Of a stretch of DNA of 45,765 nt, positions 87 through 36,250 are shown piece by piece. The notes beneath the pieces are model-generated. The model had not been told where the DNA came from, did no database searches, and saw only the letters and a program-made list of their open reading frames with translations. The stretch is taken from the NCBI GenBank assembly GCA_964408285.1, contig CAYOYV010000014.1, forward strand, positions 1 to 45,765. The letters are read 5' to 3'. Every line of letters begins with the position of its first letter. The stretch's first letter is position 1. A program made the translations under genes and the position numbers. The stretch comes from an uncultured Nitrososphaerota archaeon (GTDB lineage Archaea > Thermoproteota > EX4484-205 > JAAOZO01).

Positions 87-110
87 CGTCTGCGAAATCA
101 GTACTCGCAG

Positions 111-210
111 GCCCCGGTAGCCCAGTGGTGGGGCGGCAGGAATAGCCGAACCTCGTAAGCTGCAGGTCGCGAGTGGTCTCGACCCGCGAATTCGATCCTC
201 GCCCGGGGCT
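111..210 (+). tRNA. tRNA-Thr(CGU) with two non-canonical introns (140-150 at 30/31; 174-190 at 53/54)
   Basis: Acceptor GCCCCGG/CCGGGGC plus U73. Removing GAATAGCCGAA and TGGTCTCGACCCGCGAA restores anticodon arm GCAGC-CTCGTAA-GCTGC and T-arm GCGAG-TTCGATC-CTCGC. Central helices CGGC/GCCG and CGCG/CGCG carry 3-nt bulges. Confidence 0.93.
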
Positions 211-474
211 TGACCCAAGATTGCCGGTCACGAAGGACTCCCTTTTGGATGCCCGAATAAGACAGTATCTGCCCGACAAGCGAAGGTTGATCTGGAAAGG
301 CATTGGTTGCGCGAAGATTCTGTTCATTCAACGAAATGCAAACTCGTCCGATCTCGTAAGCTACAAGCCGCGTTTGCATCGACAGATTCGTGATGGGTCA
401 TTCGGAGTTTTGACTCTCGGTGATTGTTTTTATCTGAAGCAATCGAGGTATACATCTAGAGGAAGGAGGGAATA

Positions 475-4384: not shown

Positions 4385-4481
4385 TAGCCCGGGAGAGATT
4401 CGAACTCTCGTCAAGGGGTCCAAAGCCCCCGATGCTTGACCGCTACATTCGGCAGAGGGATGCTTCCTCTCCCACCGGGCT
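4385..4481 (-). tRNA. tRNA-Gln(UUG) with one 24-nt intron (4448-4471) at position 10/11
   Basis: AGCCCGGTGG[GAGAGGAAGCATCCCTCTGCCGAA]TGTAGCGGTCAAGCATCGGGGGCTTTGGACCCCTTGACGAGAGTTCGAATCTCTCCCGGGCTA. Helix CGGT/GCCG, bulges GG|G and AA|T, inner hairpin AGAGG/CCTCT. Confidence 0.92.
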
Positions 4482-21446: not shown

Positions 21447-21517
21447 TACCAACAAGCCCGTGAAGAGAAGCCCACGTTGACAAAGCAATTTGCCCCTAGC
21501 GAAGAAGATCCATTAGG

Positions 21518-21644
21518 TGGGCCCGGCCGGATTCGAACCGACGACACCCGGGTGTCTCCGATTCCCCCTTTCCTATGAGCCCGGTGCTCTAACCGTGTTG
21601 CCCCAAGAGCTGAACAATACAGCTCTTGCCTAAGCTACGGGCCC
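21518..21644 (-). tRNA. tRNA-Ile2(CAU) (less likely elongator Met) with introns at 15/16 (21598-21629) and 37/38 (21554-21573)
   Basis: Ile-type acceptor GGGCCCG/CGGGCCC plus A73; CCGGG-CTCATA|A-CCCGG anticodon arm; first intron contains a 9-bp hairpin CAAGAGCTG/CAGCTCTTG. Confidence 0.88.
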
Positions 21645-30016: not shown

Positions 30017-30144
30017 GCGGAGGTTGCCGAGCCTGGTCAAAGAAGCCATCGGAGTCTTTGAACGCGCAGAGAACGTCTGTTCGCGCAAGGCTTAGGACCC
30101 TGTCCCGAAGGGGTTCGTGGGTTCGAGTCCCACCCTCCGCACCA
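30017..30144 (+). tRNA. tRNA-Leu(UAG), CCA encoded, two introns (30043-30063 at about 23/24; 30070-30088 at 29/30)
   Basis: GCGGAGG/CCTCCGC acceptor; splicing restores D-stem GCC/GGC and perfect CAGGG-CTTAGGA-CCCTG; long variable arm; helices TCAA/TTGA and GCGC/GCGC. Confidence 0.93.
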
Positions 30145-30214
30145 CCTAAGCCTTGGGAACCGATTCTAGGTTCAGGAAGTTTCTTAGTGCAGGAATGACG
30201 GTCTCGAAACCCCA

Positions 30215-31753
30215 TTACTCCCATTCTATCGTGGCCGGCGGTTTGTTCGTGACATCATAGACGACCCTTGTCACCTGAGGGATTTCATTCGTTATTCTTG
30301 TTGATATTCTCTCCAGAATTCTGTAGGGCATGTTTGTGTATTTTGCCGTCATGGCCTCTAGACTTTCCACGGCTCTGATTGCAACTGTATAACCATAGGC
30401 CCTAGAATCTCCTTTGATACCTGTACTCTTAGTATCCGTAAGCACCGCGAAATATTGCCATAGTTTCCCTCGTAAGCCGCTTTTCTCTATCTCCCCAGTC
30501 ACTATTTCGTCCGCTTTCCTTACGACGTCTATTTTTTCTTGTGTCACAGAACCCATAACTCTGACGCTCAGACCCGGTCCAGGGAACGGCTGCCTCTGGA
30601 TCACTTCCTTCGGTATTCCCAATCGATCCGCAACCTTCCTCACCTCGTCTTTATAGAGATCGCTTAATGGTTCAAGTATGGCCTTGAATTTCACCTTGGT
30701 TGGCAGGCCACCAACGTTATGATGCGTCTTTATCTTCTCGGAATGCTTCCGGGCCCCAGATTCGATTCTATCCGGATAGATGGTCCCCTGTATGAGATAT
30801 TCGGCGCCTATATCTTCAGCAACTCCTTCGAACACCTTGATGAACTCCTTTCCTACGATCCTCCTTTTCTGCTCTGGATCAGAGATCCCCCTTAATCTCT
30901 TCAAGAACCTTTTTTTCGCATCCATTACGATTAATTTCACCTTCAGTTCTTGTAGCGTCGTGGGGATAGATTCCGGCTCTCCCGCCCTCATTAACCCGTG
31001 GTCAACGAATACTGCAGTTAGATTCGCTCCTATGGCTTTGGCAGCAAGAACCGCGGCGGTGCTTGAGTCGATGCCTCCACTCAAGGCTATTATGGCCTTC
31101 TTGCACCCTACGATTTGTCTTATTCTTCGTGATGCGTTGGTTAGGAAGTCCGTCGGCCTGTAGTTTGCCTTGCACTTGCACACGTAGAAGACAAAGTTGC
31201 GTAGTGTTTCCATTCCCCTTTCGGTGTGGATGACCTCTGGATGCCACTGAAGTCCATATATCGGTTTATCCCTGTGTTTGAAGGCAGCCACTGGGCAGTT
31301 CTCCGTATATGCGAGCACCTCGTATTCCTGAGGAATCTCAAGAACCACATCTCCGTGACTCATCCAGACTTTCTCGTGTTTCCTCATCCCCCTTAGGACG
31401 CCAATTGGTTTGGTTATGGTTGCCCGAGTCGTCCCGTATTCCTTCTTCTGCCCGACTCCCACCCTTCCTCCTGAGAGGAATGCGATCAGCTGATGACCAT
31501 AGCATAAGCCCATAATTGGCATACCAAGAGCGAGTACGTCAACCGAGCTTTTGGGAGCGCCGTCGTCATAGACTCTTGAGGGCCCTCCAGAGAGGATCGT
31601 TCCCTTTACCTTGAGTTTCCTTTTGGAAGAAACAGTCTGTTCACCGGCAAGGTCATAGGGGATTATTTCCGAATAGACTCCGAGTTGCCTTATCCTTCTC
31701 CCTATCAGGTGGCAGTACTGGCCCCCGAAATCCACAATCAAAATTCCGTCCAT
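30215..31753 (-). CDS. guaA: GMP synthase (glutamine-hydrolyzing), fused form
   Basis: DFGGQY, GLCYGHQ, QWHPEV, SGGIDS, QGTIYPD, KTHHN and KPPATIEWE. Confidence 0.96.
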   Translation of the reverse strand: MDGILIVDFGGQYCHLIGRRIRQLGVYSEIIPYDLAGEQTVSSKRKLKVKGTILSGGPSRVYDDGAPKSSVDVLALGMPIMGLCYGHQLIAFLSGGRVGVGQKKEYGTTRATITKPIGVLRGMRKHEKVWMSHGDVVLEIPQEYEVLAYTENCPVAAFKHRDKPIYGLQWHPEVIHTERGMETLRNFVFYVCKCKANYRPTDFLTNASRRIRQIVGCKKAIIALSGGIDSSTAAVLAAKAIGANLTAVFVDHGLMRAGEPESIPTTLQELKVKLIVMDAKKRFLKRLRGISDPEQKRRIVGKEFIKVFEGVAEDIGAEYLIQGTIYPDRIESGARKHSEKIKTHHNVGGLPTKVKFKAILEPLSDLYKDEVRKVADRLGIPKEVIQRQPFPGPGLSVRVMGSVTQEKIDVVRKADEIVTGEIEKSGLRGKLWQYFAVLTDTKSTGIKGDSRAYGYTVAIRAVESLEAMTAKYTNMPYRILERISTRITNEIPQVTRVVYDVTNKPPATIEWE

Positions 31754-31911
31754 TTTAGTTTGTGTTTCCCACGCTCTCTCGTTAAATAATTTTTGCTAGG
31801 GTCGCCACCCTTGAGGGCAGAGAGAACGCTTGGTTAAACATACGCACGCCTTAGTCGATTTAGATCATATGCCTTGTCACATAATTCCCTGTAGGCTGTT
31901 GGAAAGAAGGG

Positions 31912-32577
31912 TTATTTCCTCTTGACCCGATCCTTTACGAGAAGGAGAAGAGTTCCGGCCACCGAAGTCACTATTGGGATGCTGTCTCCGAATTCAGGAA
32001 CGTCTAGCGGTATGTGAAGCTCGAAAAACAGCAGTTGGGTACAATCGTCTATGTAGATCTCAACTGCTATCATTTGGCAACCAGTAGGCCAGAAATTCTC
32101 ATTCGCCTGTCCGACGAAAGTATCAACGGCCGTATGGTCCACAGTCACGCTCTTGCGCGACAGCTCTGCGTCTATTTTGGTCCAGCCCCACCCAAAGATT
32201 CTCCAGAGTGCCGCTTGTATAAAGTATTTCGTATGAGCTCCCTTGTTATTGATTACCCAATTGGCCTTTCTCCAGGTTGGGTTGTCGATTATGTACAGCC
32301 TAGCCGAATAGGGTTGGTTCAGCCTGACAGTGTGGTCGAGATCGATGCACCAGGCCAGATACCCAACGCCGTTTTGCAGAACGTAGCCAGCAGGGACATT
32401 CGCAAAAGTTGCGTCCACATAGCTGTTGTGCCACCAGTTGCTCAAAGTCACCGTAACCTGCGTGGAAGGAACTAGAGGGCCGTTAGCGAAGGCCCTTAGA
32501 GACGAAGCTGGAATCAGTAATAACATCATTCCGACAACAACGTAAAAAAGGGTGGCTCTGCTCCTCACTAGCTTCAT
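31912..32577 (-). CDS. secreted thioester-domain-like surface protein with PEF-CTERM sorting signal
   Basis: Signal peptide; AWCID, IQAALW and late TQLL motifs; C-terminal VPEF, hydrophobic helix and basic tail. Confidence 0.65.
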   Translation of the reverse strand: MKLVRSRATLFYVVVGMMLLLIPASSLRAFANGPLVPSTQVTVTLSNWWHNSYVDATFANVPAGYVLQNGVGYLAWCIDLDHTVRLNQPYSARLYIIDNPTWRKANWVINNKGAHTKYFIQAALWRIFGWGWTKIDAELSRKSVTVDHTAVDTFVGQANENFWPTGCQMIAVEIYIDDCTQLLFFELHIPLDVPEFGDSIPIVTSVAGTLLLLVKDRVKRK

Positions 32578-33727
32578 CTTTACGCCCCCCAATCTGCACC
32601 CCAATATTATATCAAATTTGTGAATCAACGATTCATGACAAGATTACCAGTCTATGTGCTCCCATGAACTCCCTGTCAGATCAGCAACGTATTTTACAAG
32701 CCCCCGCATTCAGTTCTATCAGCATTAATTCGTTGCACATAAGTCGCGAAGGACGCAAGCTTCTAAGCCGTTCCAAAGTTGCCCGCGGCCACGCCCTACA
32801 GAGGTAAGCAAACGGCCCCTCACAACTGCCCCAAAAACAGCGCTGAGAAACCACAGAACGCTTCAGCAATCCGGCATAGAAACGGAGGTCCATTCGGCCG
32901 CCCTTCCACCAGCGCTCTACGTCAACCAACGGGCACGAAGCCGAAGATGCCAAATTCGATTGCGTCCGCTACACCCCAGATAGGCGAGACCATGACTACC
33001 CAGATATCTTCTGGGATGGAGAGTATTGCCATTCTGATGAATCCAGAATCAAATCCGCGGCCTCTGGTTTAAGCTCCTAGCAAGCAATTGCCTTGGCTAA
33101 GTACATGTTTCTGGAAACAAGGATCAGCACCATTCAGTCCTTCACACGCGCAAGACTGTTCCGCAGAAATCGGTCTGGTGTTTTAAGAATCTATGTGAAG
33201 TGCCGGTTCTGATAGGAAGGTAAGAATGCCGAATCGACGCCATGACAGTTTTTCCCGAGATGTCGGCCATGTGATCGAGACTCTGGACCAATCATAGAGC
33301 AAAGCTCCGCCCTTCTCTATTCAATATTGAGTCGGGTAGTGGGCCAAGCTTATGGGGATCCCTAGAAGGTCTTGGACCCAGCAAGCCGAGGACATGTCTG
33401 TCCTCGGTTCCTTTGATTCAGATTCGTCGCGAGATGCAGTAGATATTTGCGTCACCAATATGTTTTCCACGAAGCGCCCAAAGCTAGGCTGTTACTTGAG
33501 GCTAGTACCAAGTTATGTTGCTTGCTCCCCTCGGGCCGCATTCGAAGAGTTACCTTCTCGACTCCTCCCAGAGTCAACTGCAGCACATGAAAGTACTTGA
33601 AGGAACGTTCTGGTGGCTTGTGTGTCTCCAGTTATGGGGCAGCCTCTGATGAGAAACCCCAATTTGGAACAGGCGCATGCCGCGTCGCAGAACGTTTTTA
33701 TCCGACGTTAAAACGGTGTTATACCAA

Positions 33728-34075
33728 ATGGCCATAGATCCCCAGAAACTGAACGAAAAAGAGCTTGCCATCTACAACGAACTCAAAGAGGTCGCAGATC
33801 CAGAACTCGGAGCCTCCATAATAGATATGGGGCTCGTCGACGAGATATCCGTTGAAGGAACCGAGGCAAGAATCACATACCATCTGACCGTCCCAATGTG
33901 CCCCCCGGTAATGGCACTATACATCGGCAATGAGATAAAGAAGAAGCTCCTAAGGGTTCAGGGCGTTGAAAGGGCATCCGTGAGGGTCACCAACCACTAC
34001 TACGAAAAGGAAATCAACCAAATGTTGGCGCAGGAGCTGAAGCCAGAATCCGGTGAGACGCAGGCACCCAAGTGA
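33728..34075 (+). CDS. DUF59 (SufT/PaaD/MIP18-like) metal-sulfur cluster assembly factor
   Basis: L.EV.DPELG.SI.DMGLV and LT.P.CP motifs. Confidence 0.88.
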   Translation: MAIDPQKLNEKELAIYNELKEVADPELGASIIDMGLVDEISVEGTEARITYHLTVPMCPPVMALYIGNEIKKKLLRVQGVERASVRVTNHYYEKEINQMLAQELKPESGETQAPK

Positions 34076-34110
34076 AGGACAATAGGGCTCACAAGGAATC
34101 TGCTCTATGC

Positions 34111-35067
34111 CTACTTGCCCTGAATATTTTTCTCGTAGTAGGCTGCAAGAAGTAGCGGGAAGATCACGGTTGCGTCCCCTATTATGTTCGAGATGGATGC
34201 GCCTGGTTTCACCTTGCCCCAAGATATAGCCTCGCTTATCCTTGCACCAGTCAACGAGCCGTCAAATTCCGTGCCAGTTGTTATTGCAACGACGTAGTCC
34301 AATCCCTCCTTGAATTGATTCCACCATAGAACATGGTGCTTGCTTATTCCTCCTCCTAAGATAATCGCGCCAGTTCTTTTCCTCTCGAATATTTTATCTG
34401 ACATGAGCTTCATGTCCTTCAAAACGTCGAGATGTAATTTTCCCTTCTGGTATCCATACATTAATGCCGTGCCGAAGGCCGAGTCCACGATCCCTGGGGA
34501 GATGACAGGTACGCCTTTGAGATAGGCTACGCGCAGGATTGAATTCTCGTCGTCTAGCCGCCTGCCTGCCTCTGCAAGCAATTCAGAAGGAGAGAACGAT
34601 TTCCCGTTTCCTAACTCATCTACCATTTTCCTGACGAATTTCTCTATAATCGGACCGTAGGAAACCAGAGGAACCACAATGTTCCCAAGTCGATGTAGGT
34701 CTCTCTCACGAAGCCGGGCATCATCATCGAAGAAGGTGCCCAAGTGGTACTTCCCTCCCAACGCACGAGCAATATCATGATCCGCAGTCCCGCCGGTCGT
34801 TATAACTACGTTCACCAGATTATTTCTTATTGCCTCGGCTATGACCCCCCTGAGCCCAGTTGCGACCAAGTTCGCGGTGAACGATAGAAACTTAGTACAA
34901 CGCTGATCTCCCTCCATTCCAATCAATATATCCAACCCCTTCGAAACTTCTCTCGCTTGGAACCCTCCTCCCCGCCCGAGTTTGTCAATCAGATCACTGA
35001 AGGACGAGAGGTTGGCTGAGTAATCCTTCACCTCATCCCTGTTGCGCTTGTGCCGTTCCTTATTCAT
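34111..35067 (-). CDS. dys: deoxyhypusine synthase
   Basis: GGFQA, SFTANLVATGLRG, TTGG..DHD, RLGN, GGGISKHH and DGSLTGA...EAISWGK (catalytic Lys). Confidence 0.95.
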   Translation of the reverse strand: MNKERHKRNRDEVKDYSANLSSFSDLIDKLGRGGGFQAREVSKGLDILIGMEGDQRCTKFLSFTANLVATGLRGVIAEAIRNNLVNVVITTGGTADHDIARALGGKYHLGTFFDDDARLRERDLHRLGNIVVPLVSYGPIIEKFVRKMVDELGNGKSFSPSELLAEAGRRLDDENSILRVAYLKGVPVISPGIVDSAFGTALMYGYQKGKLHLDVLKDMKLMSDKIFERKRTGAIILGGGISKHHVLWWNQFKEGLDYVVAITTGTEFDGSLTGARISEAISWGKVKPGASISNIIGDATVIFPLLLAAYYEKNIQGK

Positions 35068-35068
35068 C

Positions 35069-35830
35069 TCAGCCCAGCATTTTCAAGGCGAAATCTAAAC
35101 TTACCTCCAAATCGTCTAGGCTCAGGTTCTCTACAACTAGTGGCCTCGCCGGATCTGTTCTCACTATTTCGGAAAAGAAACGCCCCCAGTCTATGTTGCC
35201 TTTCCCAAGGGGCAGATGGTCATCCTTGACGCCTAGGTTGTCGTGAATGTGAAAGTAGCAGAACGATCTGTTTACTCTCATGAATTCCTCAAGGCAGCTT
35301 TCCATGTTCGCATGACCAACATCCAAGGCGAAGTTTGGCTTGAGCAGAAGCTTCTGAAACTGTTTCATCTCCTCCGGCTTATAGAAGGCCGTTCTCCTCG
35401 ATAGGTTCTCCAGAAGCGGGACCATCCCCAGATTGGTGGCAAAGTCAAACAGCTCGTTGAGTATTCCCGCTATCTCTTCTGGCATGATTTCGTCGTTCCT
35501 ATATCCTGGATGTATCACGGCGAACTTCGCCTCGTATCTATTCGCCAATTCAATTGACCTCTTGACGAGTTTTATGCACGCGATCCTATGGATAAGATCG
35601 CTGGAGAAGATGTCTTTCCTAAGAAAGGGAACATGAACCGCGAACACAGTCTGGTGATCTCTCTTTATAGCATGTAGTTTTAGCGCGTCGTCCTCATTGA
35701 TGGCCAGATCCTCATCGTCGATGATTTCCCAAAGCAGATTGCTCCTGCGAATTATCTGCTCGAACAGTCTAGGCGATTTTCCATCCCTCCAGGCATAGAG
35801 GGTCGAGGCGCCCAGAAGGGGCTTGCCCAT
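35069..35830 (-). CDS. metal-dependent TIM-barrel protein (xylose isomerase-like / AP endonuclease 2 family)
   Basis: VHVP, IHPG, LEN, DVGH, HIHDN and DHLPLGKG..W motifs; ATG 35830 lies 2 nt after the aIF5A stop. Confidence 0.85.
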   Translation of the reverse strand: MGKPLLGASTLYAWRDGKSPRLFEQIIRRSNLLWEIIDDEDLAINEDDALKLHAIKRDHQTVFAVHVPFLRKDIFSSDLIHRIACIKLVKRSIELANRYEAKFAVIHPGYRNDEIMPEEIAGILNELFDFATNLGMVPLLENLSRRTAFYKPEEMKQFQKLLLKPNFALDVGHANMESCLEEFMRVNRSFCYFHIHDNLGVKDDHLPLGKGNIDWGRFFSEIVRTDPARPLVVENLSLDDLEVSLDFALKMLG

Positions 35831-35832
35831 TG

Positions 35833-36250
35833 CTATTCGCTTTTCAGTCTCATTATCTTGTTTTTGCTGCCTACTCGCCAATATTCCACTGTCACGCCTG
35901 GCCTGACCGTCGAAGCGAGAGGTTCTTCCTTGAGCTTTGGTAATTCGAAAGTTTCGTAGGTTTCCATGTCCATCAATTGAAGTGTGTCCTGCGTGTCCGA
36001 GAGAACTTGCCCAATTCGTTTATCGAGCATTGGCACTTCGACTTTCTCGTCCACGGGGCTCAACAACGTGTGTTTTGCTCGATCAAATAGGCCCATGCCA
36101 ACTACTCTGGCTTTTGCCGAGCCATGTCTAGGCGCGCCTGAGCGCTTTACCCGGTTTCGAGTGTGCAACCTCAACAACCTGGCACGGCTCACCATCGATA
36201 GTCAGCCAAGAGCCCTCCTTTATTGACCCGAGCTCCACAACCCTGCTCAT
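35833..36250 (-). CDS. eif5a: translation factor aIF5A, split by a 19-nt intron (exon 1 36250-36147, exon 2 36127-35833; 132 aa after splicing)
   Basis: Exon 1 MSRVVELGSIKEGSWLTIDGEPCQVVEVAHSKPG(K) and exon 2 HGSAKARVVGMGLFD... are in different frames; removing 36128-36146 restores SKPGKHGSAK. Confidence 0.92.
36128..36146 (-). other. predicted BHB/BHL-type mRNA intron AGCGCTCAGGCGCGCCTAG
   Basis: Exon GGGT pairs with intron GCCT; cut sites AA|A and AG|A; inner hairpin GCGC-TCAG-GCGC; contains an in-frame TAG. Confidence 0.85.

Follow-up and report, generated by a model that had tools for sequence, protein, structure and literature searches.

A probable bulge-helix-bulge mini-intron in the hypusine lysine codon of aIF5A and its layout shared with a tRNA-Leu intron in an uncultured Nitrososphaerota archaeon

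The aIF5A gene and its insert

The window, i.e., the whole stretch of DNA that was analysed, is a contig of 45,765 nucleotides (nt) (C14; CAYOYV010000014.1) from the genome of an uncultured Nitrososphaerota archaeon (assembly GCA_964408285.1, hereafter G000). Its minus strand carries the gene of the translation factor aIF5A, in which 19 nt interrupt the codon of the lysine that is modified to hypusine. Judged from the sequence, this insert is very probably a real intron of the archaeal bulge-helix-bulge (BHB) type, and it is most likely spliced out. The gene consists of the following parts:

36147..36250, minus strand: aIF5A exon 1, made up of 34 codons, beginning with the start codon, and the first 2 nt of the hypusine lysine codon.
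36128..36146, minus strand: putative aIF5A intron of 19 nt, a relaxed BHB motif of the HBh' type, recognized by its central helix, its inner hairpin and its absence in most relatives.
35833..36127, minus strand: aIF5A exon 2, with the last base of the lysine codon, 97 codons and the stop codon.

The lysine codon is thus divided into 2 nt before the insert and 1 nt after it. In the unspliced sequence, the minus-strand open reading frame (ORF) beginning at 36250 has only 40 codons and reaches a stop five codons beyond the lysine codon, the remainder of the gene being open in another frame. Removal of minus-strand positions 36128-36146 restores the loop Ser-Lys-Pro-Gly-Lys-His-Gly-Ser-Ala-Lys and yields a protein of 132 residues, the size found in relatives. 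The N-terminal part of this protein matches Pfam IF5A-like_N (positions 6-35 of 63, E 4.9e-7) and aligns with the N-termini of the relatives. The C-terminal part matches the Pfam eIF-5a OB fold, and exon 2 shows 64-71% identity to relatives of the same family and the same order. A single aIF5A match was found in G000.

The bases 36149-36152 of the exon pair with the bases 36130-36133 of the intron. The resulting central helix of four pairs (G-U, G-C, G-C, U-G) lies between two bulges of 3 nt, which is the arrangement that defines a BHB, and the interior of the intron is occupied by a hairpin with a G/C stem of 4 base pairs (bp) and a tetraloop. In the available part of PMC2738675, the motif is described as being cut after the second base of each 3-nt bulge. 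Since the aIF5A motif has an inner helix (4 bp) and no outer one (0 bp), it falls outside the strict hBHBh' form and belongs to the relaxed ones. Four central pairs and 3-nt bulges on both sides are also present in four other mRNA inserts of the genome and in both introns of a tRNA-Leu gene in the window.

Other interrupted protein-coding genes of the genome

The initial annotation had supposed that further core genes of this lineage, apparently frameshifted, may be spliced, and it would have given up its idea if no other mRNA carried such inserts. In line with this expectation, four further inserts were found, in aIF5B (22 and 19 nt), CTP synthase (23 nt) and cbf5 (15 nt), all with BHB geometry, and these genes are therefore predicted from their sequences to be spliced as well. 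Together with aIF5A, this makes five putative mRNA introns in four essential genes of G000, each inside an active-site motif. The four additional ones are:

C6:68725-68746, minus strand: aIF5B intron 1, 22 nt, in the P-loop between Gly-His and Val-Asp-His-Gly-Lys-Thr (locus L143).
C6:68631-68649, minus strand: aIF5B intron 2, 19 nt, in the G2 motif between Gly-Gly-Ile and Thr-Gln-His (locus L143).
C1:204628-204650, minus strand: CTP synthase (pyrG) intron, 23 nt, N-terminal, inside Ser-Ser-Val-Gly-Lys-Gly (locus L144).
C6:39016-39030, plus strand: cbf5 intron, 15 nt, in frame with a stop, in the catalytic Asp codon (locus L039).

The predicted cuts restore the P-loop and the G2 motif of aIF5B, Ser-Ser-Val-Gly-Lys-Gly of CTP synthase and Gly-Thr-Leu-Asp-Pro of Cbf5. 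In Pfam comparisons, the downstream exons begin in the middle of a domain, namely at profile position 71 of GTP_EFTU, 14 of CTP_synth_N and 17 of TruB_N; the aIF5B exon between introns 1 and 2 is only 25 codons long. In cbf5, the insert separates the first base of the catalytic Asp codon from the second, the very position given for the cbf5 intron in the accessible text of PMC2738675. The aIF5A intron occurs in another gene; it would work like the cbf5 family without being a member of that orthologous intron.

At the position where the protein is restored, each of the five junctions defined by homology alone has four central pairs flanked by a helix of 3 bp or more. This exceeds chance, since a random site of G000 satisfies the rule of four pairs plus flank with P = 0.002 (400,000 samples). 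Outer and inner helices are both present only in CTP synthase (6 and 5 bp), aIF5B intron 1 (4 and 3 bp) and aIF5B intron 2 (3 and 4 bp); the CTP synthase intron is a full hBHBh'.

These inserts were sought by comparison with G012, a genome of the same order, of which 1.93 Mb (about 88%) were used. The 3,257 ORFs present there with a length of 100 residues or more were searched against G000, and the 1,203 ORFs reaching at least 60 bits were searched again in a local and sensitive mode. Adjacent high-scoring segment pairs with at least 8 extra bases were taken as candidate junctions. Eleven junctions resulted, four of which are short inserts in coding sequence; the cbf5 intron was found separately through its Pfam family. 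Five of the remaining junctions, each with "extra 155 nt", proved to be scaffold gaps with runs of N, one is a 180-nt in-frame insertion (C6:81818-82005) and one is an 8-nt difference to G012 (C15:2837-2846), considered rRNA-like from its very high DNA conservation. The stretch C15:2554-2917 (minus strand), highly conserved at the DNA level and carrying this 8-nt indel relative to G012, is probably 23S rRNA. About 1,200 genes of G000 could be tested in this way, and the number of five mRNA introns is a lower bound.

In the reciprocal search of G012, many frameshifts of 1-2 nt relative to G000 proteins were seen and no clear intron-sized insert besides a disturbed cbf5. The single frameshifts of 1-2 nt (loci L043-L142) are more likely to be assembly indel errors or pseudogenes than introns. 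The cbf5 gene of G012 also looks disturbed at the intron site.

Other search routes were less productive. An ab initio scan for BHB motifs with joinable ORFs returned 18,882 candidates at 2,310 ORF junctions, too many to be used, and codon-usage scores did not set aIF5A apart among them. Three of the short candidates with the best scores that lacked G012 support (C1:218977-219000, C3:182284-182309 and C1:283079-283103) were found by Pfam to be pairs of distinct genes without an intron. When the exons of all 18,882 candidates were joined in silico and compared with the G012 ORFs, only aIF5A and aIF5B intron 2 were recovered; the other three introns were missed because a minimum of 30 codons excluded them or because the G012 copy is itself split. 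A scan of tblastn alignments for in-frame stops gave 46 cases, and all 46 were artefacts of antisense or alternative-frame ORFs. A search of a genome-contig collection with the aIF5B segment returned bacterial IF2 matches only.

The tRNA-Leu gene and other tRNA introns

The gene with which the aIF5A insert had initially been compared lies on the plus strand of the window:

30017..30144, plus strand: tRNA-Leu(UAG) gene with two predicted introns; Rfam tRNA at 33.1 bits over 30017-30141, accepted by ARAGORN after splicing.
30043..30063, plus strand: predicted intron of 21 nt at Sprinzl 23/24, with a central helix of 4 Watson-Crick pairs and a weak 2-bp inner stem.
30070..30088, plus strand: predicted intron of 19 nt at Sprinzl 29/30, with 4 G/C central pairs, a 4-bp stem with tetraloop and a 1-bp outer helix.

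The 21-nt intron, absent from the initial annotation, is situated six bases upstream of the 19-nt one. Only excision of both (21 + 19 nt) produces an 88-nt tRNA-Leu(UAG) cloverleaf, which reaches 116% of the ARAGORN threshold. At default settings, ARAGORN reports no tRNA in the window, and Rfam places one tRNA of the window above its gathering score. Across the whole genome, Rfam gives 28 tRNA-like matches with E of 10 or less, and 17 of them pass the cut-off. About 46 tRNA genes are expected for a genome that is 94% complete; most tRNA genes of this archaeon therefore appear to be disrupted.

A heuristic made for this analysis enumerated BHB candidates, spliced up to two of them and kept the ARAGORN acceptances at the highest threshold. 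It yielded 22 tRNA introns of 11-37 nt, a list that may hold errors. At the canonical site, the introns are 12-17 nt long and combine an outer helix of 5-7 bp with an inner stem of 0-1 bp. At other sites, where the outer helix offered by the exons is short or missing, the introns have an inner hairpin, with stem and loop sizes including 5 and 7, 4 and 6, 4 and 4, and 2 and 3.

Several further tRNA-like genes were noticed. Within the window, positions 4385-4481 (minus strand) hold a tRNA-Gln(UUG) with a 24-nt intron after position 10 that forms a 5-bp hairpin. Positions 21516-21644 (minus strand) hold a disrupted tRNA-like gene of uncertain identity that needs two introns, and positions 110-211 (plus strand) another disrupted tRNA-like gene. 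Elsewhere in the genome, the 21-nt intron of tRNA-Leu(CAG) (C28:56-131, minus strand) begins with the same five bases as the 19-nt intron of tRNA-Leu(UAG) and ends alike. Such likeness at different tRNA positions may hint that some tRNA introns are related to each other.

Distribution of the introns in related genomes

Recurrence was examined in 30 loci drawn from 41 related genomes and in a phylum sample of 401 genomes, surveyed by protein search (for aIF5A, 150 of the 389 matches are listed) and by a degenerate nucleotide pattern. For aIF5A, the pattern comprised Lys-Pro/Thr-Gly-Lys, 10-62 nt and His-Gly; a reversed pattern served as the control, and the matches were checked by translating their flanks. 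Gly-Lys-His-Gly is uninterrupted in 28 of the 30 loci; among these are the loci of each of the five same-family genomes and every locus compared from the same order. In the phylum sample, 13 of the 401 genomes matched the pattern, compared to 1 with the reversed control. Translation of the flanks showed the matches in G113, G164, G223 and G343 to be false, and the short aIF5A open frame of G282 ends at the contig end rather than at an intron. A split hypusine lysine codon was confirmed in 8 of the 401 genomes, which belong to 4 genera, and the inserts of the three genera other than g1 are again of the BHB type:

G000, genus g1: insert of 19 nt.
G040, G047, G054 and G145, genus g20 (4 of 4 genomes): insert of 35-36 nt.
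G110 and G138, genus g60 (2 of 2 genomes): insert of 30 nt, in frame with a stop.
G352, a complete 1.58-Mb genome: insert of 32 nt, with the codon cut one base nearer to its start.

G215 probably has the split codon as well and would then be the ninth genome and represent a fifth genus. There, an insert of 16 nt directly precedes a genuine aIF5A C-terminal part (locus L285). The frame upstream of this insert is unlike an aIF5A N-terminus, and a second interruption may lie further upstream.

The intron structure is conserved in the four close genomes of g20, which make up each covariation alignment. In aIF5A, 96% of the cells are paired and 2 pairs are changed on both sides, compared to at most 58% in slid controls. 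The central helix of g20 consists of four Watson-Crick pairs and that of G000 has G-U at both ends, a difference that matches the different synonymous Pro and Gly codons of the two. In the g20 genomes, the full motif of aIF5B intron 2 is paired in each of its 60 cells, again with two pairs changed on both sides. In the latter alignment (A1: G040, G054, G145 and G047), the BHB register gives Met (ATG) before Thr-Gln-His instead of the usual Ile; an alternative cut that gives Ile has a poor central helix.

The remaining introns show different ranges. aIF5B intron 2 is present in 8 of the 30 loci (G000, G001, G003, G005, G006, G007, G009 and G010) and, by the pattern survey, in 12 of the 401 genomes, i.e., these eight and the four of g20; a match in G386 was false by flank translation. 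Its length in relatives is 17, 17, 18, 18, 19, 20, 22, 22 and 24 nt, with stems of 2-5 bp. aIF5B intron 1 occurs in all six examined genomes of family f1, to which G000 belongs, and in none of the other 24 loci. The pyrG intron occurs in 3 of the 30 loci (G000, G002 and G004) and is missing from the 27 others. Within family f1, the following combinations are found:

Genus g1 (G000): aIF5A intron, both aIF5B introns and pyrG intron present.
Genus g2 (G001, G003, G005): both aIF5B introns present; aIF5A and pyrG introns absent (in G001, the pyrG gene was not found).
Genus g3 (G002, G004): aIF5B intron 1 and pyrG intron present; aIF5A intron and aIF5B intron 2 absent.

This mosaic of presence and absence points to frequent gain or loss of mRNA introns. 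Several families of the phylum have inserts at the positions used in aIF5A and aIF5B.

Origin of the shared layout and alternative explanations

The initial annotation had stated that the 19-nt tRNA-Leu intron at 30070-30088 (plus strand) and the aIF5A insert at 36128-36146 (minus strand) share a 1+4+4+4+4+2 layout, and this is correct: both have a stem of 4 bp and a loop of 4 nt. The first nucleotide ends the 5' bulge and is followed by the hairpin, the next 4 nt pair with exon bases two positions upstream of the 5' cut, and the last 2 nt open the 3' bulge. aIF5B intron 2 has exactly the same layout. It was also rightly noted that the primary sequences differ, since all 500 shuffles reached the score of the best local match between the aIF5A intron and the 22 tRNA introns. 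For the five mRNA introns taken together, the best local scores against the tRNA introns were 5-7 and were reached by 32-100% of 500 shuffles.

The constant part of the layout (1 nt, hairpin, 4 nt, 2 nt) is a frame imposed by the enzyme, and no stable hairpin is smaller than a tetraloop on a 4-bp stem. This 4-4-4 hairpin occurs in 3 of the 27 introns of G000, i.e., in 1 of the 22 in tRNAs and 2 of the 5 in mRNAs, and the inserts found at the aIF5A site in different genomes measure 16, 19, 30, 32 and 35-36 nt. The fixed parts are thus those that the enzyme requires, the variable part takes many sizes and sequence similarity does not exceed that of shuffles; therefore, the shared layout favours convergence on a minimal substrate over common descent. 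Old transfers between tRNA and mRNA, with a decayed sequence signal, may nevertheless have taken place.

The further proposal of the initial annotation, that a single mobile module of minimal size, 19 nt, spreads from one tRNA gene to another and reached aIF5A and other mRNAs from a tRNA, is not supported and is regarded as unlikely. It could explain why three of the 27 introns of G000 have the exact 19-nt layout, two of them in mRNAs, why presence is patchy within one family, as expected from recent gains or losses, and why the same codons are occupied by unrelated inserts in distant genera. Transposition of tRNA introns is, however, defined in the available text of PMC4090602 by sequence similarity between introns, and no mRNA-tRNA similarity beyond shuffles was observed here (fraction of shuffles reaching the score, 0.32 to 1.0). 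Homologous introns vary in length and hairpin size among relatives, the fixed parts of the layout are those that the enzyme requires, and no tRNA could be singled out as the donor. That aIF5A is a pseudogene disabled by mutation, or a gene wrongly assembled, is very improbable. The insert does break the frame, so that gene callers would report two fragments, and scaffold gaps elsewhere in the assembly do mimic split genes, as in the five "extra 155 nt" cases with N. On the other hand, the 19-nt insert is unchanged in contigs of four other DNA sequencing runs (X6, X7, X8 and X10). The contigs bridging it show no indel, no joint, no N nearby and at most one substitution, located 40 nt away. aIF5A, generally regarded as essential, is single-copy with both halves intact and conserved, the BHB geometry is exact and the same codon is split in other genera. 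Least probable of all is that the ribosome bypasses the 19 nt by translational hopping or programmed frameshifting, with no RNA splicing involved. The bypass element of phage T4 gene 60 has a short hairpin right after the take-off codon, and such a hairpin is indeed found at this place in aIF5A. A matching landing codon is lacking, though, since the His codon is preceded by a triplet unlike the Lys take-off codon, and the five inserts of 15-23 nt in four genes fit the endonuclease rule and not a bypass rule. The cbf5 insert, moreover, sits at a site where splicing in other archaea was demonstrated experimentally, according to the accessible part of PMC2738675.

Several observations weigh against the interpretation of the aIF5A insert as a BHB intron formed by convergence. 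Its central helix is weak, with two G-U pairs and no outer helix, and the minimum-free-energy fold contains the inner hairpin and lacks the central helix. Fold z-scores of the five junction regions (51-57 nt) range from -1.63 to +0.43, none being significant. The aIF5A locus occurs in 12 sequencing runs, none of which is on record as RNA. The intron is missing from all five genomes of the same family and is therefore either young in G000 or was lost repeatedly elsewhere. The shuffle controls of covariation are weak at four sequences (25/500 for aIF5A and 131/500). Finally, the presence of inserts at one and the same codon in distant lineages might just as well reflect site-directed insertion, a form of mobility that would be nearer to the view of the initial annotation.

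Proposed mechanism and significance

Taken together, it is likely that the 19-nt insert of aIF5A is a genuine archaeal BHB mini-intron whose layout is shared with the tRNA-Leu intron by convergence. G000 possesses two genes of the EndA family on different contigs (tRNA_int_endo matches of 105 and 68 bits; regions C4:48740-48997 and C8:13446-13700) and the ligase RtcB (561 bits). A hetero-oligomeric enzyme requires two EndA paralogues, and those of G000 may form an alpha-beta heterotetramer; in the available text of PMC5829648, relaxed, non-canonical motifs are cut only by the alpha-beta and epsilon types of EndA. In the aIF5A pre-mRNA, the last exon bases before the cut would pair with four intron bases, giving two 3-nt bulges that are four pairs apart and propped by the minimal inner hairpin. 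The two-subunit splicing endonuclease would cut after the second base of each bulge, and RtcB would join the exons, thereby recreating the lysine codon whose product is later modified to hypusine. The same machinery would have to splice aIF5B (two introns), CTP synthase and cbf5, and the synthesis of these proteins would depend on the tRNA-splicing enzymes. The parts of 1, 4 and 2 nt would be fixed by the BHB, and the variable part may have shrunk to the smallest stable hairpin where the exons give no outer helix.

The persistence of the introns at active-site codons might be due to the fact that an inexact deletion there would be lethal; only exact excision would be tolerated, which would make such introns hard to lose. 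The conserved exon sequence may also keep the exon half of the central helix stable. A bolder view, tentative and rather doubtful at present, is that the BHB mini-introns of this lineage form a population of selfish RNA-level elements that repeatedly colonise invariant codons in essential genes and also tRNAs, possibly by reversal of the EndA and RtcB reactions at half-BHB sites, and that tRNA splicing gates the production of core translation factors. If this were true, the cell would have a built-in checkpoint linking tRNA maturation to translation capacity.

Several consequences can be named. Protein-coding BHB introns have hitherto passed for a near-curiosity, and at least five are predicted here in four essential genes of one genome, three of these genes acting in translation or ribosome biogenesis. 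Gene callers will report such core genes as frameshifted or missing. For uncultured archaea, this biases metabolic reconstructions as well as estimates of completeness. The recurrent active-site codons provide a testable data set on intron gain and persistence, and a dependence of aIF5A, aIF5B, Cbf5 and CTP synthase on EndA and RtcB would be a testable regulatory link.

Comparison with known systems

The closest known system is the BHB intron in the cbf5 pre-mRNA of Crenarchaeota (Watanabe 2002; Yoshinari 2006; Yokobori 2009, PMC2738675, as far as the available texts go). In the accessible part of PMC7714728, it is the only mRNA BHB intron reported before 2020 besides the 5'-untranslated-region (5'-UTR) case of that paper itself, and the reference list of PMC12397907 (2025), a source available in part, cites only cbf5 papers for mRNA. 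No report of an intron in aIF5A, aIF5B or CTP synthase was found in the literature outside subscription journals and supplementary files. In the literature searched, introns of this class in coding sequence have so far been described only for cbf5.

Like the cbf5 intron in the parts of these papers available, the aIF5A intron of G000 is short, lies in coding sequence, has a relaxed BHB and splits the codon of a catalytic residue. The cut between the second and third bulge base and the hetero-oligomeric EndA, published for cbf5, would also be common to both, as is the patchy distribution, which in cbf5 involves lineage-specific loss. Unlike that system, the present one extends to aIF5A, aIF5B and CTP synthase, with several introns per genome and smaller ones (15-23 nt); the aIF5A site is without any outer helix, and the case is known here from DNA and not from cDNA.

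The intron of HVO_1309 in Haloferax volcanii (PMC7714728, PMC10485636, both available in part) is likewise a target of the tRNA splicing endonuclease that belongs to an mRNA rather than to tRNA or rRNA. It differs in lying in a 5' UTR, where no reading frame is interrupted, and in belonging to a euryarchaeon with a homodimeric enzyme. The tRNA introns of Thermoproteales (Fujishima 2010, as related in the available part of PMC4090602) resemble those of G000 in that many short ones occupy non-canonical positions and standard tRNA finders fail on them; the two EndA-family genes of G000 are consistent with a two-subunit endonuclease as in Thermoproteales. In contrast, the transposition described there rests on near-identical introns at different sites, and no such similarity was found in G000.

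The intervening elements of G000 concentrate in the most conserved motifs of essential genes, which is also the habit of inteins. The latter occupy invariant motifs of essential proteins such as P-loops, that of aIF5B among them; aIF5B intron 1 lies in the same P-loop, between His and Val of Gly-His-Val-Asp-His-Gly-Lys-Thr. Inteins are excised from the protein, and their spread is often due to homing endonucleases, whereas here no mobility gene accompanies the inserts, and removal would take place at the RNA level by the enzymes of the host.

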